UHGV virus genome: UHGV-1607176
Length of the DNA: 11,799 nt
Source: a virus
Direction: 5' to 3' (one strand)
Shown: positions 2,208-11,102 of the stretch, one piece after another
How the letters are laid out: every line of letters begins with the position of its first letter
How positions within the stretch are numbered: the stretch's first letter is position 1
Translations under genes and position numbers: made by a program
Notes under the pieces: generated by a model
What the model saw: the letters and a program-made list of their open reading frames with translations, nothing else
Told to the model about the DNA's origin: nothing
Databases searched by the model: none

Positions 2208-2707
2208 GATTGCATAGGGTCCCAAATTCGTGGAAACGTTGATTGTGCGGTTCCATAGGCTTTAAGGAAACATCCCAGCCCATCGCCATAGCAACCGTAC
2301 AAATCCGGAAGATTGTTAATCAGGCACTGGTTCTCAAGGTCCTGGAACGGCGATTTCTCGGCGGTTGCCGTGAAGGTAATTGTCCAGTTAATCCCGTCTT
2401 CGGTGGACTCGGCGATAGTGGACGTAATGGTTACCTGATAATCTTCGATGCCCATGCCGAAGTCGTGCGCCATCCAGAAACTTGACGCACCGCCGTCTAC
2501 TTTTTCGAGGAACGACAGAAACGCCTGTCGCCCCATTGCGGATGTAATCAGGGTTACGCTCACCGGGAACACGTCGTAATACGTGTCGCGCCCCTGACGT
2601 ACACCGCCACCAGCTAAATCAACGCTCCAGACGTTGTTACGTCTGGTCATCGAGTAGCCTTTCGATACAATTGGCTTAAGGCTACGTGGGAAATATAAGT
2701 CGCTCAT
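2204..2707 (-). CDS. Minor tail protein, lambda gpM-like
   Basis: 167-aa ORF immediately downstream of the tape measure gene (start overlaps the TMP stop). Segment YYDVFPVSVTLITSAMGRQAFLSFLEKVDGGASSFWMAHDF resembles the gpM core pattern SVTLS...FLE..GG..SF-W, recalled from memory. Confidence 0.55.
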   Translation of the reverse strand: MSDLYFPRSLKPIVSKGYSMTRRNNVWSVDLAGGGVRQGRDTYYDVFPVSVTLITSAMGRQAFLSFLEKVDGGASSFWMAHDFGMGIEDYQVTITSTIAESTEDGINWTITFTATAEKSPFQDLENQCLINNLPDLYGCYGDGLGCFLKAYGTAQSTFPRIWDPMQS

Positions 2708-4725
2708 TATTTGAACCCCGGCGCGTTTCTTGTGGCCTTGCGAGCCTTGCTAATCTTACTGTTGCTGTTCTGCAAAGACGCGGCAACCTGTTCTTCAATG
2801 ATGATACGCAAACGGCCCTCATCATCTTGCTCAGTGGATACGTTGCCGATTTGAGAACTCGTGTTGTTTACGATAGTAACATTAGATGGGCCACTATTTC
2901 CGCTATTATTACCGTTTAACTGCTGCCGTGTTTGACTTGCATTGGTCGCCCTGCCAGAACCCGCCATCTTGATAATCTCAGGGCCGCGTTCACCAACCAG
3001 GTAACTACCGCCAGCGTTCATTTGCCCGCCTTGCTCACGCGCGCCGCTAATCTTGGCGATGTTCGCCACCCCCGCCGCGACAGCCAGACCCGCGGCAACC
3101 GGAGCGAGTGCCGGGCCGACAATTGGAATAGCAGCAGTTGATTTATAGGCTTCGATAGCAGCCGTGTAAGTGGCAATAGTCGCTTGCGTTATGGCGAACG
3201 CTTTGTACGCAGCGGACGTCTCCCCCAGTGCGGATTTAGCATCCGCTGCCATGCTGCCGAATGCGTCGGCGGTGGCGTTGGCTTGTGCAATATTGCTCTG
3301 TTCGTTCAGGTTACGCACTGCATTAGCGTATTCTTCTTCGCTGATTAGTTTCTGTTTAAGGAAATCGTCCAGTTGCTTAAGTTTGGCGTCATTCTGCCGT
3401 TGGATTTCCTCGAACTCTGTGCCACCAAGCGCCTGTAGTTTCTCCAGATATGCATCAGCATTGTTATACAGCGCATCTCGTTGTGCCTGAAACTCCGCCA
3501 TGATGTCACTTTTCGACTTCTCGTAGTCAGCGTCGCTTACGAGTTGCTTGTCGTGGAACTCCTGCAATTTAGCCAGTTTCTGTTTCTCTTTGGCGTCTAT
3601 CCGTTCTAACTCTGTTCCGGTGTTTGTGTCTATTTGAGCTATAAACTGGTCTGCGGCTTTCTGTGCGCTTTCCTGCGCGCGAGCGTCGGCGCGGGCTTGA
3701 GCATCTGCTCGTTTCTTAGCTGCGGCAGCGATACGATTCTGCCTGTCTATTTCCTTCTGTGCCCTGTCCGCCTTATCCTTTTCATACGTCTTCTCAGATT
3801 GCTCTACCCCTTTTCGCTCGGCTGCGCGGGTCTTTTCCTCCACACCAAGGTAGTTAAGTTCATTTCGCAGTTTATTTATTTCCATCTGCGCTTCTGGCGT
3901 TTTGGCGTTTATGCCGTCCAGGTAGGCGACCAGCCCTTCTCGAGCTCCAGGAACCCCAGCTGCGATTGCTTTCTGAGCAACTTCAATACTGCGTAACTCT
4001 TTGGCGGTCAACCCCGCAGCTTCCGCAGCGGATTCGTACTGGAAAGCCACGGCCCCGGCAGCGTCCCCGCCTTGGGCTATCTGTGATGCGGCAAGGTTGG
4101 TGGTCAACTTCTGAAACAGAGATTGGGCTTTTGTTACCTTATCAATAGCTTCAACAATCTTATCTGCGGTGGAGTTAGCCTGTATGGCGGTTGCCTCTAG
4201 TGCCTTATTAAGAAATGCCATCTTCTCCGCTGTTGTTGCCCCGACAGCGTCCAGTTTTTCCAGTGCGTCATTCATGTCATACACACCGGGTGTGGCCTCA
4301 TTAAGAGCGTCATCAAGGAACTTAGTAGCTTCCTCCAGTTGTTTAGCGGTATCCGTTGAGTTACTCAAAGACGCGTACAGCGCGCCGCCGATTACGGTGG
4401 CGATAGTCAATACCGTGCCCGCAATTGGATTGAATGCGGACACTAACTGACTACCTTGTTGCGTGAAAGCCGTGAGGGCGGACTGCCCCCCTTGGATTTG
4501 TACGATAAAGTCCTGTACCTGATACCCAGCATTACCTATTGACGCCCGCATCGCGTTCATCTTCGGGGTTGCCGCGGAGGTGGTGTCCGTTAGTTTCTTT
4601 GTGCTGGAATCCGCTTTCCCAGCGGAACTACTAAGGTTATCTAACTGCTTTGCTGCTTGCTCCGCTCCAGTTGCCTGGACTCGCACCATTAAACTCGCGG
4701 TATCAGCCATTATAATCGTCCTCAT
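2707..4725 (-). CDS. Tail tape measure protein
   Basis: 672-aa ORF, the largest in the window. Ala/Gln/Lys/Glu-rich coiled-coil-like central region. C-terminal GGSYLVGERGPEII-type motif typical of tape measure proteins. Canonical position after the chaperone pair and before gpM-like. Possible alternative start at 4710 (MADTASL). Confidence 0.85.
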   Translation of the reverse strand: MRTIIMADTASLMVRVQATGAEQAAKQLDNLSSSAGKADSSTKKLTDTTSAATPKMNAMRASIGNAGYQVQDFIVQIQGGQSALTAFTQQGSQLVSAFNPIAGTVLTIATVIGGALYASLSNSTDTAKQLEEATKFLDDALNEATPGVYDMNDALEKLDAVGATTAEKMAFLNKALEATAIQANSTADKIVEAIDKVTKAQSLFQKLTTNLAASQIAQGGDAAGAVAFQYESAAEAAGLTAKELRSIEVAQKAIAAGVPGAREGLVAYLDGINAKTPEAQMEINKLRNELNYLGVEEKTRAAERKGVEQSEKTYEKDKADRAQKEIDRQNRIAAAAKKRADAQARADARAQESAQKAADQFIAQIDTNTGTELERIDAKEKQKLAKLQEFHDKQLVSDADYEKSKSDIMAEFQAQRDALYNNADAYLEKLQALGGTEFEEIQRQNDAKLKQLDDFLKQKLISEEEYANAVRNLNEQSNIAQANATADAFGSMAADAKSALGETSAAYKAFAITQATIATYTAAIEAYKSTAAIPIVGPALAPVAAGLAVAAGVANIAKISGAREQGGQMNAGGSYLVGERGPEIIKMAGSGRATNASQTRQQLNGNNSGNSGPSNVTIVNNTSSQIGNVSTEQDDEGRLRIIIEEQVAASLQNSNSKISKARKATRNAPGFK

Positions 4726-4972
4726 TACGGCCTTCGAACAGTGCGTCTAGGCCCATTATTAAGTCTACCTCAAGCAACGAGAACGGCTGTTTATGCAACT
4801 CTGCGTACGCTGTAAGGTGGTGATATTGGAGCATTTCCCTTGGTATTAGCACATTATTGCGGCTTACAAACTTCAATGCGTAGTATTTATCCATTATTTT
4901 CATCATATCGCTCGGGCATTCCGGCGGGGTTTCCTCAGGCTCCTTCGGTACAGGTAACCCCATAGCCGCCAT
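4703..4972 (-). CDS. Tail assembly chaperone, gpT-like segment (possibly made as a -1 frameshift extension of the upstream chaperone)
   Basis: 89-aa ORF between the gpG-like gene and the TMP. Its reading frame is -1 relative to the upstream gene and stays open across the 89-nt gap back into the last about 7 codons of that gene. Weak ribosome-binding site before its own ATG. Confidence 0.45.
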   Translation of the reverse strand: MAAMGLPVPKEPEETPPECPSDMMKIMDKYYALKFVSRNNVLIPREMLQYHHLTAYAELHKQPFSLLEVDLIMGLDALFEGRNEDDYNG

Positions 4973-5061
4973 AGCGGCCTTGTGCCCGTCGGCGATGGAG
5001 TCGAACTCACGTCTCCTTTGCCGTATAACCCAGCGATACCTCGCATATTCGTAAAGCGCTT

Positions 5062-5478
5062 CTACTTTACAGATAAAGCTTTGCGGCTCTCAGCATGGTG
5101 TTGAGCGACAGCCCCTCCCAACCCTTTATACTCCTTCAACAGCTTGACCAACGCTTTCTTAGTGAACTTCTCCTCGAAGGACCACCCTACAACAACAACG
5201 GCAGCAAGTGCATCGTTAAGTTTAGCCAATTCACTGTTTAATTCCGTGTTATAGCGCGCCCAGTCCCCTTTCTCGCGGCACTCCGCGTCGAGCGGTTTCA
5301 GGCGGTCAAGGATGTCGCGGTAAGCGGAGATAAAATCCTTAGCTGCGGCGATTGAGTCGTCGCAGTCAGGCCCCATCACCTGCAACCACTCCCCTGAGTC
5401 ACTGCCGTCCGGTAGCAGGATAGGCATCTTAGTTCCCGCAGCGTGGCGGGACGCGAAATAAAAATCAGAAAGTTTCAT
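5062..5478 (-). CDS. Tail assembly chaperone (gpG-like)
   Basis: 138-aa ORF immediately upstream of the T-like ORF and TMP. AAGGA ribosome-binding site 8 nt upstream of the ATG. Assignment is by position and size class only. Confidence 0.5.
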   Translation of the reverse strand: MKLSDFYFASRHAAGTKMPILLPDGSDSGEWLQVMGPDCDDSIAAAKDFISAYRDILDRLKPLDAECREKGDWARYNTELNSELAKLNDALAAVVVVGWSFEEKFTKKALVKLLKEYKGLGGAVAQHHAESRKALSVK

Positions 5479-5571
5479 TCTTTAATCCTTTGGTTAAGAG
5501 GTTGTTGGTTAAAGAGAAATGCACCAGGCGGTAACCAACCGCTTTTCGTGCGCGACACTAGGTGCAAAATT

Positions 5572-5601
5572 ATTCTAACACACTACTTGCACACCCCAAT
5601 A
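5572..5601 (-). promoter_or_regulatory. Candidate extended -10 promoter for the minus-strand tail genes downstream of the island
   Basis: On the minus strand: TGtTAGAAT (reverse complement of plus 5572-5580), with a poor -35 (ATTGGG region). It is positioned to restart transcription of the chaperone/TMP genes after the terminator at 8131-8150. Sequence-only prediction. Confidence 0.3.
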
Positions 5602-5615
5602 TAATAGGGTACTAT
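5587..5615 (+). promoter_or_regulatory. Candidate sigma70 promoter driving the plus-strand island
   Basis: TTGCAC (5587-5592), 17-nt spacer, TACTAT (5610-5615), about 40 nt upstream of the first island ORF. A TATAAT at 5600-5605 overlaps but has no good -35. Confidence 0.35.
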
Positions 5616-5655
5616 TCACTTACACCAACGTTATTAACTTAAATAAGGAATTAAA

Positions 5656-5982
5656 ATGCGTAAATTAATCATAGCCATGGGTCTTATTTCTTTTTGCGCG
5701 GTAGGGTCCCAGTGTGAGCAAGTATATAGTGAAACCCCTTTAGTAACTTCCGGGGTGCTTGATTCAGCCCCTCCGTCTGCCGTTAGTGCGTTTAAAACCG
5801 CTGCTATTCGCGAATGTAATGCTGCCGTGCGCGCTGGCGGGTCTGGCCTTGGTCTTGAATTGATGACATCCCTTGTTGTTGAGTCTGTAGATGTTAACAG
5901 CCCCACTTTCAGCAGCCTACTGTTAGCCACTCGTTTGCAAATGGTTACAACCGGATGGTCAATAGGCGCAGAAAGTAAATAG
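5656..5982 (+). CDS. Small exported protein of unknown function (108 aa, N-terminal signal peptide)
   Basis: Strong ribosome-binding site (AAGGAA 6 nt before ATG). N-terminus MRKLIIAMGLISFCAVGSQC has a basic n-region, hydrophobic core and an A-V-G cleavage-type site. Not a canonical lipobox. Mature part is Ala/Ser/Val-rich with two Cys. Confidence 0.6.
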   Translation: MRKLIIAMGLISFCAVGSQCEQVYSETPLVTSGVLDSAPPSAVSAFKTAAIRECNAAVRAGGSGLGLELMTSLVVESVDVNSPTFSSLLLATRLQMVTTGWSIGAESK

Positions 5983-6047
5983 TTGCCTTTATTTAAAGGA
6001 ATGCACTGTGGTTAAATAGGACAAATCCTAAACACGAGGAAATAGGC

Positions 6048-7202
6048 ATGGCCCAGAAGAAAATAACCGACGAACAGTTACAGGAAGAATTGAACGCTGG
6101 GATGAAGAATATCGACATTGCTCGTAAATACGGCATCTCAGACCGCGTTATTCGTATCCGTAAAGCGAAACTAGCGAAGAAAGGCGTAGGCCACGGGCGT
6201 GACGTTAGCCACCTTGTGCCGGACGGCTACAAGATTAAGGGTACATCGTCTCTGGTTGATGAGTTAGGCAACACTAAACTGCAATGGGTTAAGACCGACA
6301 CCGATGCGGAACGTCAGGTCGAGTTAATGAAAGCCGTTGTGGACGAGATGAAAAAAGATTTACCCAAGTATAAGCCAGTCACTTTGGCCAAAAATGGGAC
6401 AGATGACGACTTATTAAATCTTTACACAATAACAGACCATCACATAGGGATGTTGGCGTGTCAAGAAGAAGGCGGGGATGATTACGACACCACAATCGCG
6501 GAATCTCTCGCGGTTGACTGGTTCAACAGTGCGGTTTGTATGAGTCCACAGAGTGGTGAATGTATCATTAACTTCTTAGGGGACCAAATGCACAACGACG
6601 GCATGAAGGCAATGACCCCTATGAGCGGTCATATTCTTTCAGCGGATAGTCGCCTGTTTAAAATGATACGCACGGCCATTAAGGTTATCAAGCTGGCTGT
6701 CTCACTGTGCTTGCGAAAACACAAGAAGGTTAAACTTCTTATCTGTGAAGGTAACCACGACCTTAGTTCTTCTCTGTGGCTCCGGGAGATGTTCTACGAG
6801 GTATACACAAATGAGCCTCGCGTCGAGGTTAACCGGGAGGTGTCACCGTATTATGCGTACAAGTTCGGGGATTGTATGATTTCAGCACATCACGGGCATT
6901 GTTCTAACTTTGCTAAGGTAGAGCAGGCTATAATCGGTAAGTACCGGGAGATGTACGGGCGGTGTAAGTTCACATATGTCCATACGGGGCACCTCCATCA
7001 CAGGGCGGTTAAAGAGACTAATCTGCTAATTGTTGAGCAACACCAGACATTAGCGGCTAAAGATGAGTATTCTAGTAAGGGCGGCTATTATTCAGGTAGA
7101 AGCGCAAATGTGATTACATACCACAAACGTTACGGGGAGGTGTCCCGCATAAGTATACCTGTCGAAATGCTGCGAGACATAAACCCAAAATCGACATACT
7201 AA
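6048..7202 (+). CDS. HTH domain fused to a calcineurin-like metallophosphoesterase (predicted phosphodiesterase/nuclease)
   Basis: 384-aa ORF with GAGGAA ribosome-binding site. N-terminal about 45 aa is helix-turn-helix-like (NIDIARKYGISDRVIRIRKAKL). It carries the full ordered metallophosphoesterase motif set: DHH (6435-6443), GDQMHNDG (6579-6602), GNHD (6750-6761), HHGH (6888-6899), GHLHH (6987-7001). Confidence 0.8.
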   Translation: MAQKKITDEQLQEELNAGMKNIDIARKYGISDRVIRIRKAKLAKKGVGHGRDVSHLVPDGYKIKGTSSLVDELGNTKLQWVKTDTDAERQVELMKAVVDEMKKDLPKYKPVTLAKNGTDDDLLNLYTITDHHIGMLACQEEGGDDYDTTIAESLAVDWFNSAVCMSPQSGECIINFLGDQMHNDGMKAMTPMSGHILSADSRLFKMIRTAIKVIKLAVSLCLRKHKKVKLLICEGNHDLSSSLWLREMFYEVYTNEPRVEVNREVSPYYAYKFGDCMISAHHGHCSNFAKVEQAIIGKYREMYGRCKFTYVHTGHLHHRAVKETNLLIVEQHQTLAAKDEYSSKGGYYSGRSANVITYHKRYGEVSRISIPVEMLRDINPKSTY

Positions 7203-7217
7203 AATATAGGTGAAAGT

Positions 7218-7718
7218 ATGGATTGGAGTGAGGTTTTTAGCTACAAAAATGGCGTCCTATACTGGAAAGTCAAATCATGTCGCCGTAACGATGTGAATAT
7301 AGGTGATGTGGCCGGGAGTTTGTGTAAAAACGGCTATTGGTATGTCATGTTTGGTAACCGTAAGTTTAAAAGGTCGAGGGTGGTGTATGAGATGTTCTCA
7401 GGTAAGATTCCAAAAGGATTTGTCATAGACCATACTAACCATGATACCTGTGACGACAGAATTGAAAACCTGTCATGCAAATCTAGAAGGGACAACATGG
7501 TTAACGTGAAAAGGCGCAAAGATAATACCTCTGGAGTTACGGGTGTGGCGCGGAAAGGAAAAACTAAGTGGAGAGCTTATGCCGTTGTCAACGGTAAGCA
7601 GATTAGTAAAACATTTGACAGAATAGAGGACGCTTTCGCTGAAAGAATTTACATGTCTGTGGCTAATAGGTTTCACATAAATCATGGACTGACAACATTC
7701 AACAACGGTTATAAATAG
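7218..7718 (+). CDS. HNH homing endonuclease with C-terminal AP2 DNA-binding domain
   Basis: 166-aa ORF with AGGTGA ribosome-binding site. HNH motif GFVIDHTNHDTCDDRIENL (about 7425-7472). AP2-like segment SGVTGVARKGKTKWRAYAVVNGKQISKTFDRIEDAFAERIY (about 7530-7655). Confidence 0.85.
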   Translation: MDWSEVFSYKNGVLYWKVKSCRRNDVNIGDVAGSLCKNGYWYVMFGNRKFKRSRVVYEMFSGKIPKGFVIDHTNHDTCDDRIENLSCKSRRDNMVNVKRRKDNTSGVTGVARKGKTKWRAYAVVNGKQISKTFDRIEDAFAERIYMSVANRFHINHGLTTFNNGYK

Positions 7719-7727
7719 GGTGTAGAG

Positions 7728-7958
7728 ATGACTTCAAAATACAACCGCACAATGACAAACACTCACGGCAGCACCATGACAGTAGACGTTTATGATGTGC
7801 TCCGTGCTTTCGATATCCGTGACCCGGCGCTACAGCATGCGTTAAAGAAGTTATTGTGCATGGGCTTGCGCGGACACAAGGACACCGGAACCGACTTAGC
7901 AGAAGCAATTGAAAGTCTGGAGAAGTTACGGGAATACCGAAGCAATATTGATGAGTGA
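7728..7958 (+). CDS. Small phage protein, DUF3310-like (function unknown)
   Basis: 76-aa ORF with ATG start. Pattern VYDVLRAF...ALQHALKKLLCMGLRGHKDTGTDLAEAIESLEKL resembles the DUF3310 signature (AIKYL-RAG-KG...DL-KA-YL) as I recall it. Not verified by search. Confidence 0.5.
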   Translation: MTSKYNRTMTNTHGSTMTVDVYDVLRAFDIRDPALQHALKKLLCMGLRGHKDTGTDLAEAIESLEKLREYRSNIDE

Positions 7959-7965
7959 AAATATT

Positions 7966-8127
7966 ATGAAAACAATATATGTAATCCGAGTATACGACGA
8001 AGAATGGGACGAGTGGGTTGATATTTATGCCGTTAGTAGTAAGGAAGAGGCCTCTAAAGAAATGACAGAACGAAGGGACCGAGGCCAGTTAACTAACTTC
8101 TACGAAATGCCGTTCAAAAGTGAGTAA
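7966..8127 (+). CDS. Small acidic hypothetical protein (about 53 aa)
   Basis: The track ORF 7909..8127 starts at a TTG and overlaps the previous gene. In-frame ATGs lie at 7951 and 7966, and 7966 is chosen because it follows the upstream stop. Sequence MKTIYVIRVYDEEWDEWVDIYAVSSKEEASKEM... is acidic. Followed directly by the terminator. Confidence 0.4.
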   Translation: MKTIYVIRVYDEEWDEWVDIYAVSSKEEASKEMTERRDRGQLTNFYEMPFKSE

Positions 8128-8130
8128 GAA

Positions 8131-8157
8131 AAGGCCCCTTTCGGGGCCTTAGTTTTA
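8131..8157. terminator. Bidirectional rho-independent terminator between the convergent island and major tail gene
   Basis: Perfect 8-bp stem AAGGCCCC (8131-8138) / GGGGCCTT (8143-8150) with 4-nt loop TTTC. Followed by a T-run on the plus strand (8153-8156) and a TTCTT stretch on the minus strand. Lies in the 27-nt gap between the plus-strand stop (8125-8127) and the minus-strand stop (8155-8157). Confidence 0.75.
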
Positions 8158-9321
8158 TGCGTAACTAATACGTTGAATTACGATAGACGACTGATACTGG
8201 TTGCCTGTGGACTGCCCTTCTATACTTTGGGTAATTGACTCAGGCCCACCAATCTCAGGTGTAACCGCCGTGAGTTCTGCGCGTTTCAAACTAAAAGACA
8301 TAGCCCCGTTTACCCCCGCCAGAATAGAGTTAATCTCCACCTGCTGTTCGTTGATAAACTTCTGAATCATAGCCATGTCGTACAGCTTGCCGGAGATGGA
8401 GAAGGTGTTAGCCGCGCGGCTACGTTCCACAAACGCTACGTTAGTGTTGCCGAGTTCGAACTGCGCCGACGCGCTGTTGTCGTTGGTGATGGTCAGGCTG
8501 TCGCAACGCAACGGCGTAGAACCGTCGAACACAGAAACATCGACCGAGGAGAATGGCTCGTCACCAAACGTAACAGAGGAGAAATCAGAACCAGACGGCT
8601 GCGTGGTGAGAATCTCCTGACTGCGACCGATGAACGGGAAGCTGCCAGTTACCATCGCGTTAACAGCCTGTTCGATGGTAAAACCAGAAACTTCCACGCC
8701 TTTGGTTAACGTGTACGCGTCAGTACCGCCGCACTGGCCTTTGTACCAGGTAAGGATAGAGAACGTCTTACACGCGTTACCGGTTTCCAACGTGTCGCCA
8801 GTTTTAGCCTTACTAGTTTTTGTCTCGGTGGTCAGGGTGTGTTGGATGCCCGCACCAGTAACAACCGTAGCCGTTACTGCAGTAACAATAAATGGTTTTG
8901 CGTTATCGCCTGTTAAATCGGTAAACGCAATCAGGTCGCCTACCCCAACTCCGTCAGTGATAAAACTGCCGGTAGCGCGTGTGAACGTCTTGCCCGCGGG
9001 TGCGACGGTAATCGATAGTCCTGACCGGGAAACGCCGGATTGCCACGTAGAGCCTAAAGCCCCGGCTAACCAGTCGTCCTGACTTTTAGAGCTAAGCTCA
9101 ATAGCGTATTCTCCGCTAACCTGCTTGTTACCGGTGCGGATGGATGTGGTTTCTCGGCTGCCGTCAAGTTCGTTGGAGGTCAGCGTGTCGCGGGTAATGG
9201 CAGGAACGCCGCCCGTGTTGCGCAACGGCGACCATACCGGGTTAGCCGGTGTTACGCCCGGGGTAGTTTCTGCCACATAGAATTGCGCAGTATTCGCGCC
9301 CTTAAAAGGAGTTGTAGCCAT
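8155..9321 (-). CDS. Putative major tail (tube) protein
   Basis: 388-390-aa ORF. The track start at 9327 is a GTG overlapping the upstream stop, and the first ATG is 9321..9319 with AAGAGG upstream. It is the last large gene of the neck module before the chaperone/TMP genes and is followed by a strong terminator. Thr/Gly/Ser-rich. Assignment is by synteny; a capsid-related role is not excluded. Confidence 0.5.
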   Translation of the reverse strand: MATTPFKGANTAQFYVAETTPGVTPANPVWSPLRNTGGVPAITRDTLTSNELDGSRETTSIRTGNKQVSGEYAIELSSKSQDDWLAGALGSTWQSGVSRSGLSITVAPAGKTFTRATGSFITDGVGVGDLIAFTDLTGDNAKPFIVTAVTATVVTGAGIQHTLTTETKTSKAKTGDTLETGNACKTFSILTWYKGQCGGTDAYTLTKGVEVSGFTIEQAVNAMVTGSFPFIGRSQEILTTQPSGSDFSSVTFGDEPFSSVDVSVFDGSTPLRCDSLTITNDNSASAQFELGNTNVAFVERSRAANTFSISGKLYDMAMIQKFINEQQVEINSILAGVNGAMSFSLKRAELTAVTPEIGGPESITQSIEGQSTGNQYQSSIVIQRISYA

Positions 9322-9323
9322 AT

Positions 9324-9740
9324 TCACAGCCTCTTGGTGAATGCAATAAAGTTAATTGACAATGGTCGTTTGGCCCATCCGTTTTCTACAATCAGCGGCC
9401 CCAGGCTAACCGATTGAACCTCGGCGCAGATGTCGTTACGTGAAAATGACTTACCTGCTTTAAACGCCGTGTTAAGTAAGTCTGCCATTTTATTGATTGG
9501 CGCGCTACCTTTCACCGATGCGTAGTTAATATCTACCTGATAGACGCCAGCGCGTTGTTCCGTGAAGAACAAATCCGCCTGTTCCGTATCCGCCAGCAAC
9601 ATGTAACTTGCCAGATATGGTGTATCGGTTGACGTCGGTGCGCCGATATTTTCAAGCGCGACTTTGATGCCGTTGGCGGTTCCGAAGGCTACCAGCGGCA
9701 CATCAAACGCTTTTGTTAAGTCCTCAAAGTAGCCCATCAT
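9324..9740 (-). CDS. Neck / tail completion protein (tail terminator-like by position)
   Basis: 138-aa ORF with ATG start, translationally coupled to both neighbours by ATGA overlaps. Lies immediately upstream of the putative major tail gene. Confidence 0.4.
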   Translation of the reverse strand: MMGYFEDLTKAFDVPLVAFGTANGIKVALENIGAPTSTDTPYLASYMLLADTEQADLFFTEQRAGVYQVDINYASVKGSAPINKMADLLNTAFKAGKSFSRNDICAEVQSVSLGPLIVENGWAKRPLSINFIAFTKRL

Positions 9741-10132
9741 TTCACCTTGTTGGCTTCTTCGTTAATGAGTTGCTGGAAGCGGGACACGTTAGTCCTGACC
9801 ACCCCGGCGGGTGCCTGTTGCGACCAGCCATACTCCAGCCGTTGTGCATACGGCAGGTTATTTGTCAGCGTGAACTCGTGCCAGTCTGCGGCTTTCAGTA
9901 CGAAACTCGTAGCGTTTCCGGTTGCCGTGTTTCCTGATTTATCCGTAGCGTCTGTAATACCGGAAGCAGGAGTACCGCCAGATGCCATCCAGTTCATACG
10001 AAAGCGACCCGTATCTACCGGACTCGCCTCTATAATAGCGGAAAACAGCTTGATAGACACCTGGCGCATCACCGTCTCAGGGTTCTTCTTCGCCTTTTCC
10101 ACGAACTTAGAGACATCGAGCGCGAAACTCAT
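9737..10132 (-). CDS. HK97 gp10-like tail-component / head-tail joining protein
   Basis: 131-aa ORF containing DTGRFRMNW and YAQRLEYG, which resemble the hallmark DTGRLR...YA..EYG pattern of the HK97 gp10 family (from memory). ATGA overlaps on both sides. Confidence 0.55.
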   Translation of the reverse strand: MSFALDVSKFVEKAKKNPETVMRQVSIKLFSAIIEASPVDTGRFRMNWMASGGTPASGITDATDKSGNTATGNATSFVLKAADWHEFTLTNNLPYAQRLEYGWSQQAPAGVVRTNVSRFQQLINEEANKVK

Positions 10133-10488
10133 TTTCTCACCTGAATAAAGTAGGCCACGACATCATCATTAACCATCTTCTTCTCAATGGTTACGACGGA
10201 CCATTGCTCTCCGCCGAATTGAACCTTGTCTTCCATCTTCGGTACGACACTGTAATCGGCTTTAACAATCATGTCGCCGGCCTGAATCGTCGTACCATTT
10301 ACCAGTCCCGCGTTTACCGGAACCGGAACGGCCTTCAACGGCAACACTTCATCGTCAGACCATACGTACTCGCCGAGGGCTTCATCCCACACTTTCGAGC
10401 CAGCGCGAATCAGCGACACCGTGCTGCCGAATTTGGTTAGCAGGTGCGTACCCACGCCTTGCATACGCTTACTGAAAGCGGTGCTCAT
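10129..10488 (-). CDS. Head-tail adaptor / head closure-like protein
   Basis: The track ORF extends to 10542, but the ATG at 10488..10486 overlaps the stop of the upstream gene (TGATG), matching the coupling pattern of neighbouring genes. That gives about 119 aa. Assignment by position and size. Confidence 0.4.
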   Translation of the reverse strand: MSTAFSKRMQGVGTHLLTKFGSTVSLIRAGSKVWDEALGEYVWSDDEVLPLKAVPVPVNAGLVNGTTIQAGDMIVKADYSVVPKMEDKVQFGGEQWSVVTIEKKMVNDDVVAYFIQVRK

Positions 10489-11102
10489 CAGGCGGCCTCC
10501 AGTCTTGAGATAACCAGTAGCGCGGATGGTGCTGTGCCCCATGCGGTCACGGTAGCCGCTTGCGGGTATACGCCGCCGTAGTTGCTTCCGGAGCTATCTC
10601 GCATAATCTGAACGGCAAACGTCTGGCCTGCTGTCGGGTTAATAACAACGCGGGATTCAATCGGAATCGTTACGTCGGCGCTGACTAGTTTCGTGGCGGC
10701 GGGCGAGCCGTACTGAGCGCCATTTACTAAAATACGTGATGGCAAGATTGATGTACCGCTAGCACCCGTGCGCCCCGCCTGCAACTTGATGCGAACGGCG
10801 TAGTTTCCGGGGGTGTTGAACGTAACCAGCCCTGCGGCATTAATCGTTACTGGGTCGGATGCGCTACCCTGAGCGGAGCCAAAAGTTAACTGCAATGCTG
10901 TATCTACCGCGGTTGGTGCTTGTGCTATGGTAGACGCAGCACGTAGAACTTCAACTTCTTTAACGCCTGGAGTGGCGTAGATAGGCGAGTCCGCCATCTG
11001 CGTCATTACCTCGCGCAATGCGGCGGGGGTAATAAGACCGGTCGTGTTGTCAGGTAGCTCGGACCCGATTAGCGTAAATATCTCTGTTTTAGTCTTCGCC
11101 AT
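10488..11102 (-). CDS. Phage structural protein of unknown role (neck/head module)
   Basis: 204-aa ORF with ATG start. Ala/Thr/Gly/Ser-rich with beta-rich appearance. No motif I can name. Confidence 0.4.
   Translation of the reverse strand: MAKTKTEIFTLIGSELPDNTTGLITPAALREVMTQMADSPIYATPGVKEVEVLRAASTIAQAPTAVDTALQLTFGSAQGSASDPVTINAAGLVTFNTPGNYAVRIKLQAGRTGASGTSILPSRILVNGAQYGSPAATKLVSADVTIPIESRVVINPTAGQTFAVQIMRDSSGSNYGGVYPQAATVTAWGTAPSALLVISRLEAA

Follow-up and report, generated by a model that had tools for sequence, protein, structure and literature searches.

Spackle (Sp, gp61.3) of phage T4 is made as a precursor of 97 amino acids (aa) and matures to a 75-aa periplasmic alpha-helical bundle with one disulfide, which works alongside Imm (PMC7677548). 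Ltp of the Streptococcus phage TP-J34 and gp15 of HK97 block injection, an exclusion that is overcome by changes in the tape measure protein (PMC10883804; PMC3952083), and Glo of the Vibrio cholerae phage K139 has been described as a soluble periplasmic superinfection-exclusion protein (PMC3952083). Cor (T1, phi80, N15) and Llp (T5) are receptor-blocking lipoproteins. Here we analyze a stretch of 11,799 nucleotides (nt) from the virus genome UHGV-1607176, referred to below as the window, and in it ORF108, an open reading frame (ORF) at positions 5656-5982 on the + strand that encodes the predicted precursor of a small exported protein. In the phages closest to the window, the place of ORF108 is taken by a gene of the Imm family. 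An earlier note, made from the sequence of the window, had named ORF108 as a candidate exclusion factor by analogy with Cor and Llp, adding that it may not belong to those families. The candidacy gains from the Imm gene in the same slot of sister phages, which lies behind the same upstream region and never occurs together with the ORF108 family; the part that concerned receptor blocking is not supported.

The window is the tail module of a Kagunavirus/Jerseyvirus-like (Guernseyvirinae) siphophage. A megablast search with it returned 387 Salmonella and Escherichia phage records, the best of which were Kagunavirus XY1 and BUCT823. Both of these closest DNA relatives have Imm at the position of ORF108. 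In the alignment with XY1, the two sequences are shared up to about 10 nt before the ORF108 start codon, and similarity returns about 30 nt ahead of the start codon of the exonuclease gene that follows. Exactly one ORF has been exchanged, the ORF108 family for Imm, under one set of expression signals. The right border of this exchangeable cassette lies in the + strand spacer between ORF108 and the exonuclease gene (5983-6047), and its left border is the intergenic control region (5479-5655, GC content 0.38) between the divergent chaperone (-) and ORF108 (+) genes.

Across Kagunavirus and Jerseyvirus, the columns of the 177-bp control region are on average 82% identical, whereas the flanking genes go down to 40-60% protein identity. 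It contains a candidate promoter for the + strand island at 5587-5615 (+), which we propose from a conserved block: TTGCAC (5587-5592) and TACTAT (5610-5615) separated by 17 nt, with a perfect TATAAT (5600-5605) overlapping. The block is conserved in Imm-bearing and in family-bearing phages of both genera. A hairpin at 5526-5546 (AGGCGGT-AACCA-ACCGCTT), followed by TTTT, is also conserved in this region. XY1, K1H, Jersey, and S4lw have G:C in place of its pair T5532:A5538, a compensatory change. From its sequence, this hairpin could be a terminator-like element of the + strand, or part of the control region of divergent promoters.

Every family member with a readable context occupies one slot, which lies on the strand opposite the tail genes, at the chaperone-proximal end of the interval between the chaperone and tail tube genes. 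The slot was seen in K1H (ORF18), Jersey (gp25), and S4lw, in the metagenomic contigs L006-L010, L094, and L095 (proteins 33-89% identical), and in 17-19 IMG/VR loci. The family gene leads the slot unless a tiny ORF precedes it; in the window, no other credible + strand ORF was found within 5479-5655, so that ORF108 is indeed the first gene of its island, as had been claimed. In three loci (L008, L053, and L072) the slot holds the family gene and nothing else, which makes this gene the most persistent part of the island and not a passenger of the DNA-metabolism genes.

The slot was surveyed in 80 IMG/VR loci, which a tail tube alignment had retrieved, and was found empty in seven of them. Its leading gene (at least 55 aa) encodes a small membrane or exported protein in 52 of 58 slots; in L020-L022 and L025, the leading gene that was counted is preceded, on the chaperone side, by a probably spurious ORF of 41 aa. 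The 52 comprise a 59-72 aa protein with two transmembrane segments (23 slots), the ORF108 family including distant forms of 114-137 aa (19), a 66-aa protein with one transmembrane segment (7), Cys-rich lipoproteins (2), and another protein with two transmembrane segments (1). The protein present in 23 loci is a bona fide Imm_superinfect (Pfam PF14373), for which the XY1 copy scores 51.8 bits (cut-off 27.9). A second assignment is to PHROG 1039 ('immunity to superinfection'), the group that includes T4 Imm. That Jerseyviruses have a version of this gene had been noted earlier (PMC9409062). The other slot occupants in L037-L039, L043-L045, L047, L050, and L055-L057 are small uncharacterised envelope proteins. 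The 66-aa protein has a sub-threshold YebO-like match and coexists with the family in L055-L057; the others are Cys-rich lipoproteins of 84-89 aa and a protein of 65 aa that has two transmembrane segments.

Imm and the ORF108 family were not found together. Among 88 loci and genomes, 26 carry Imm, 21 carry the family, and none carries both; of the complete genomes, K1H has only the family gene and XY1 only Imm. The slot gene also follows the tail alleles. Between the window and XY1/BUCT823, the exonuclease is 98-99% identical and the tail tube 95-98%, but the chaperone only 42% and the tape measure about 50%. Compared with K1H, the tube is 97% identical, ORF108 58%, the chaperone 57%, and the tape measure 42%. 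In clusters formed at 80% identity, the chaperone/tape measure types TAC1/TMP1 and TAC2/TMP2 occur with Imm, and TAC3/TMP3, TAC7/TMP8, and the type of the window occur with the family, while the allele types of the exonuclease are shuffled across Imm- and family-bearing loci. Judged from these alleles, the slot gene is inherited with the tail side (chaperone and tape measure) and not with the exonuclease. Relative to XY1/BUCT823 (L001/L005), a sharp mosaic junction is seen at 2707-5478. The tape measure protein of the window is short, 672 aa compared to 735-820 aa in relatives.

The comparative data identify ORF108 as a genuine phage gene. The gene call (ORF listing, raw sequence) gives an ATG and 108 codons plus stop. 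A Shine-Dalgarno sequence, AAGGA (5645-5649, +), lies 6 nt before the ATG, in agreement with the strong ribosome-binding site of the earlier note, and an alignment of upstream regions places similar motifs at the equivalent position in the relatives. Full-length homologues were found with tblastn in 99 deposited phage genomes. In comparisons with close alleles, the ratio of nonsynonymous to synonymous substitution rates (dN/dS, Nei-Gojobori) is 0.18-0.41, and the gene is under purifying selection. An antisense ORF (5634-5930, -) was set aside, since it is the + strand frame that conservation and selection follow. The dN/dS of ORF108 is raised relative to that of the flanking genes; 9 of the 14 replacements between ORF108 and P0003 fall in the signal peptide. 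We rejected an arms race as the explanation of the raised ratio because most of the changes between close alleles sit in the signal peptide.

ORF108 matches PHROG 14165, the family of K1H ORF18 and Jersey gp25, with E=1.8e-33 (residues 1-108 on positions 1-109 of the 109-position profile). The gene is thus already in the databases as a hypothetical protein; PHROG gives the function of the family as unknown, and a literature search found no paper that discusses it. ORF108 is 58% identical to K1H ORF18 and 48% to Jersey gp25. With the single ORF108 sequence as query, a word-indexed protein search found only three close relatives (87-98% identity). An exhaustive HMMER search over 1.84 billion representative proteins gave 11 hits, six of them genuine small proteins, and a profile query raised the family to 18 clusters. 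Two HMMER hits of 4377 and 3692 aa, consisting of many short stretches, were taken as low-complexity artefacts from the table alone; an 832-aa dockerin protein was scanned and taken as an artefact of the same kind. Single-protein and motif scans did not find the family in 185,579 species-representative genomes, nor was it found in the plasmids searched. By these searches, the family is confined to Guernseyvirinae-like phages.

The family signature, derived from alignments, consists of a signal sequence, a Cys 2-3 residues past the predicted cut, a second Cys 34-37 residues further on, and a C-terminal helix, SLLxATRxxMxxGWxxGAE. ORF108 has all of these (Cys20, Cys54, and SLLLATRLQMVTTGWSIGAE). 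Over many lineages, with identities that range from 98% to about 30%, the family keeps the cysteines and the motif. Pfam has no family for ORF108 and six relatives, even at E<=10, and searches of NCBIfam and PADLOC gave no meaningful family for ORF108. A weak match of one distant member to Tad3 (E=0.058, well under the cut-off) was discarded as noise. Two GenBank labels could not be reproduced: 'DUF3718' on the S4lw orthologue (OQ660438), since neither this protein nor six other members hit any Pfam family at E<=10, and 'glycoprotein precursor'.

Residues 1-17 of ORF108, MRKLIIAMGLISFCAVG (5656-5706, +), form a predicted signal peptide without a lipobox. The protein starts with MRK, followed by a hydrophobic run of 13 residues, LIIAMGLISFCAV, and GSQ. 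The mean hydropathy of an 11-residue window in this run is 2.6, and the rest of the protein stays below transmembrane grade. All 25 relatives examined share the form of this N-terminus, despite quick sequence change there. We predict that signal peptidase I cuts after Gly17, between AVG and SQC and two residues ahead of the invariant Cys20. This site is a rule-based call (the -3/-1 rule applied across the alignments); distant slot members have canonical A-x-A cleavage sites (SAEA before VSC, SAGA before ATC), which support processing by signal peptidase I and the cut after Gly17 in ORF108. With a positive start, a hydrophobic core, a polar end that has small residues at -3 and -1, and no later transmembrane segment, ORF108 is predicted to be exported by Sec to the periplasm. 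The Sec-type signal peptide described in the earlier note is borne out by these features.

The same note had seen no lipobox, which is right for this allele. ORF108 does not match the PROSITE lipobox pattern PS51257 ([LVI][ASTVI][GAS]C); the residues that precede its cysteines are Phe (Cys14) and Gln (Cys20). However, a distant branch of the family carries one: of 23 relatives, nine match the pattern, with Cys17 as the lipobox cysteine, Ser in position +2, and a short linker of Ser, Gly, and Ala. On the evidence of these motifs, the family therefore switches between soluble and lipid-anchored forms, with ORF108 as a soluble form.

The mature domain (5707-5979, +) has about 91 aa, a mass of 9.3 kDa, and an isoelectric point of 4.6; it contains the two invariant cysteines, which probably form a disulfide, and the C-terminal helix. 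AlphaFold2, given an alignment of 18 sequences, returned an all-alpha model of ORF108 with a mean predicted local distance difference test score (pLDDT) of 79 and a predicted template modelling score of 0.71. The blocks of the mature domain mostly have a pLDDT of 79-94, with a dip to 67 at residues 81-90. A Foldseek search of the PDB with this model gave nothing below E=5. Against BFVD (predicted viral structures), the sole named confident match was the K1H orthologue, and there was one weaker, unnamed match of 110 aa (E=7.8e-4, 22% identity). A sequence-profile search of the PDB returned only chance matches to ribosomal P0 (E ~0.5).

Spackle is the described protein that ORF108 resembles in general architecture. 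Both come from virulent phages as short precursors (97 and 108 aa) with a cleavable export signal, and both have, in ORF108 by prediction, a small periplasmic alpha-helical domain (75 and about 91 aa) with two cysteines, one of them near the mature N-terminus (PMC7677548). Spackle shares a process with Imm, and ORF108 sits in the slot of Imm. This architecture is all that the two have in common: neither the PDB sequence search nor Foldseek detected similarity of ORF108 to Spackle structures. The Imm family (PF14373, PHROG 1039) shares with ORF108 the slot, the upstream control region, the orientation, and the small size in sister Guernseyvirinae. The proteins differ, in that Imm is an inner-membrane protein with two transmembrane segments, whereas ORF108 has one cleavable hydrophobic segment and a predicted soluble domain; ORF108 has no match to PF14373.

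Ltp and HK97 gp15 likewise come from siphophages and reside in the envelope of the cell, either in the membrane or outside the cytoplasm; Ltp is lipid-anchored, as the nine distant relatives of ORF108 with a lipobox would be. Sensitivity to these two proteins maps to the tape measure, and ORF108 is genetically linked to chaperone and tape measure alleles. However, Ltp and gp15 are accessory genes expressed from the prophages of temperate phages, whereas Guernseyvirinae isolates are lytic, and the PDB sequence and Foldseek searches detected no homology of ORF108 to either. Glo, likened here by description only, has the same compartment and soluble state that are predicted for ORF108, but is encoded by a temperate phage. 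Cor and Llp are small exported phage proteins implicated in exclusion; unlike these lipoproteins, ORF108 lacks a lipobox and never lies beside a receptor-binding gene, in a phage group that uses glycans. A PHROG scan with ORF108 returns phrog_14165 alone and no match to PHROG 1119 (Cor), and ORF108 has no similarity in fold or sequence to the solved structure of T5 Llp. The earlier caution that ORF108 may not belong to the Cor and Llp families was well placed, and the analogy itself finds no relationship in sequence or fold to lean on. In sum, ORF108 matches none of the known exclusion families, while its anatomy and its position fit such a function.

We tentatively propose, by analogy with Spackle/Imm, Ltp, and Glo and not with the receptor blockers Cor and Llp, that ORF108 may well serve superinfection exclusion as a periplasmic factor that targets the step of DNA delivery, after adsorption. 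ORF108 is interchangeable with an Imm-family gene, exported by prediction, and placed at the head of the operon, and from these properties we infer the exclusion role. The precursor would be made from the promoter-proximal place of a rightward operon between the tube and chaperone genes, exported by Sec, and cut after Gly17 by signal peptidase I. The mature protein, of about 9 kDa, would fold in the periplasm into a soluble, acidic, all-alpha domain, probably with a Cys20-Cys54 disulfide. There it would interfere with the periplasm-spanning DNA delivery of incoming related siphophages, and thereby serve the same end as Imm, the exclusion of superinfecting relatives. The target might be the conduit formed by the tape measure and tail tip, or a wall-degrading activity of the tail tip; to name the tape measure protein itself as the target is conjecture. 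The window encodes no gp5-like lysozyme. Its 121-aa tail-tip ORF (1330-1695) has no Pfam hit, and the XY1 gene at the matching position, matched by position only, is annotated 'peptidoglycan endopeptidase'.

Several points weigh against this proposal. The functional call rests on position and analogy, and the argument from position is indirect; export, disulfide, timing of expression, exclusion function, and target are all features that we infer. Accessory genes without any functional relation can share a slot of this kind, and the other occupants of this one are uncharacterised. ORF108 has no detectable likeness in sequence or fold to Spackle, Imm, Ltp, Llp, Cor, or PDB entries. Its mature domain gives no sign of an arms race or of unusually fast evolution. 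The mutual exclusivity of Imm and the family has a hypergeometric P of 2e-4, a naive value that is not corrected for phylogeny. Simple physical linkage in a few independent lineages may account for the association with the chaperone and tape measure, and the TAC9/TMP7 background carries either gene (the family in L073, Imm in L054); the family and Imm are therefore replaceable in one tail context. Finally, the island promoter predicted in the earlier note has in its favour the TTGCAC/TACTAT and TATAAT motifs in a block conserved across genera, but a sigma-70 scan called no promoter upstream of ORF108.

An extension of this proposal, which we consider speculative and somewhat unlikely, is that the ORF108 family, the Imm-type genes, and the other small envelope genes are alternative occupants of one exchangeable 'exclusion cassette' slot beside the chaperone and tape measure genes, each cassette being matched to the type of tape measure or DNA conduit with which it travels.

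Three other functions could be ascribed to a small exported protein at this position. ORF108 might take over the host envelope or counter a defence by inhibiting or redirecting an envelope component of the host or a prophage, such as an enzyme, a protease, a stress sensor, or an exclusion system. We regard this as unlikely, although its promoter-proximal place, with DNA-metabolism genes in the same operon, points to expression ahead of the late genes, the slot is a hotspot for several unrelated small envelope proteins, and the family is limited to phages. Neither PADLOC nor anti-defence families gave a match, no candidate host target can be named, and among the alternatives in the slot, the only one with a functional annotation is a superinfection-immunity protein. 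The receptor masking suggested by the comparison with Cor and Llp, in which ORF108 would inactivate an outer-membrane receptor, block adsorption, and protect progeny from cell debris, is quite improbable. A small exported protein in a virulent siphophage would suit this role; in addition, by the Lol sorting rule, Ser at +2 would direct the nine distant members with a lipobox to the outer membrane, and one of the small lipoproteins among the slot occupants has a faint match to PHROG Cor (E=0.008), confined to the signal peptide. However, the allele in the window is not a lipoprotein and resembles neither Cor, Llp, nor any solved structure. The proposed search for homologues next to receptor-binding genes found the gene always between the chaperone and tube genes and never next to a tailspike gene. 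Kagunaviruses and other Guernseyvirinae are reported to depend on O-antigen or capsule glycans, which they engage via tailspikes, and have no known protein receptor (PMC11990801). These observations make receptor masking less likely, and Imm, the positional alternative of ORF108, acts on DNA entry and not on adsorption.

An equally improbable role is the control of lysis timing, with ORF108 as a periplasmic antiholin or lysis-inhibition factor that binds a holin or spanin, like T4 RI or in the role ascribed to Spackle. The size, the periplasmic location, and the all-alpha prediction are similar, and Spackle mutants show a collapse of lysis inhibition (PMC7677548). Against this, ORF108 is not linked to the cassette of holin, endolysin, and spanin genes, which sits elsewhere; its signal peptide is of the cleavable type and not a signal-anchor-release domain; it is exchanged with Imm and not with lysis genes; and no solved structure of any function matches its fold. 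That ORF108 is a chance ORF or a non-functional remnant is hardly credible. The lack of a Pfam or NCBIfam family and of a fold match would be expected under this explanation, but the comparative data effectively refute it: the dN/dS is low (0.18-0.41), the invariant cysteines and the motif persist over many lineages from 98% to about 30% identity, a Shine-Dalgarno sequence is always present, and the structure prediction is confident.

ORF108 opens a + strand island (5656-8127) between the tube and chaperone genes, with a GC content of 0.39-0.48 compared to 0.52-0.53. The second gene of the island (6048-7202, +) encodes a 384-aa protein, assigned in PHROG and Pfam scans to a helix-turn-helix (HTH) region plus an SbcD-like exonuclease. 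It matches PHROG 704, 'DNA repair exonuclease', with E=7e-150, and has no Pfam domain above threshold; an HTH-like region of about 45 residues at the N-terminus (weak GerE and late-activator matches) is followed by the SbcD-like metallophosphatase part. Next are an HNH endonuclease gene (7218-7718, +; HNH_3, Pfam E=6e-16) and two small ORFs from the ORF listing that close the island, 7728-7958 (76 aa) and 7909-8127, both on the + strand. The 76-aa ORF matches only the C-terminal third of PHROG 2452 (positions 150-220 of 235) and resembles a remnant of the 184-223 aa gene found last in the island of K1H, XY1, and Jersey. It looks as though the endonuclease, on inserting, had displaced a kinase-phosphatase gene together with the front of that 184-223 aa gene. 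A scan for terminators found none between ORF108 and the rest of the island (6048-8127).

The - strand genes of the window encode a DnaT_2-like connector, the tail terminator, the tail tube (8155-9327), two chaperone ORFs, the tape measure (2707-4725), and distal tail proteins; the tube and tape measure genes were assigned by family searches. The ends of the island and of the tube gene are separated by a strong bidirectional terminator-like hairpin of eight pairs, AAGGCCCC-TTTC-GGGGCCTT (8131-8150, both strands). This terminator parts the tube gene from the island, and the chaperone/tape measure operon therefore probably needs its own - strand promoter in 5479-5655. The tail assembly chaperone gene divergent from ORF108 (5062-5478, -), whose allele type co-segregates with the type of slot gene, forms a frameshifted pair with a second chaperone ORF (4703-4972, -). 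The two ORFs match positions 1-138 and 172-258 of one 259-position profile, PHROG 15027, which points to the usual programmed frameshift product; the equivalent pair in K1H is annotated as a joined coding sequence. Elsewhere in the window, a 137-aa ORF overlaps the upstream gene by 55 nt (10129-10542 and 10488-11102). Relatives call this gene with 119 aa, and the true start is therefore probably an internal ATG (MSTAFSK...). In the distant relative L009, a Tad2-like gene (14449-14715; PF11195, anti-Thoeris family) lies inside the head-tail connector region.

For therapy and biocontrol directed at E. coli and Salmonella, Kagunaviruses and Jerseyviruses are frequent candidates, often used in cocktails, in which exclusion between related phages decides whether the components support or impede one another. 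Should ORF108 be an exclusion factor, it would add a new family, with a fold that has no solved counterpart, to the short list of periplasmic exclusion proteins that includes Spackle and Glo. If it is not, the slot would still be a clear hotspot at which virulent phages carry envelope-targeted accessory genes. The family, Imm, and the other small envelope proteins form a natural allelic series behind one shared upstream region, which lends itself to gene-swap tests, including tests of specificity matched to the tape measure. Should the slot hold exchangeable exclusion cassettes matched to the tape measure, virulent Guernseyvirinae would carry self-recognising, lock-and-key exclusion modules, and ORF108 would found a new and structurally unmatched family of periplasmic exclusion proteins.

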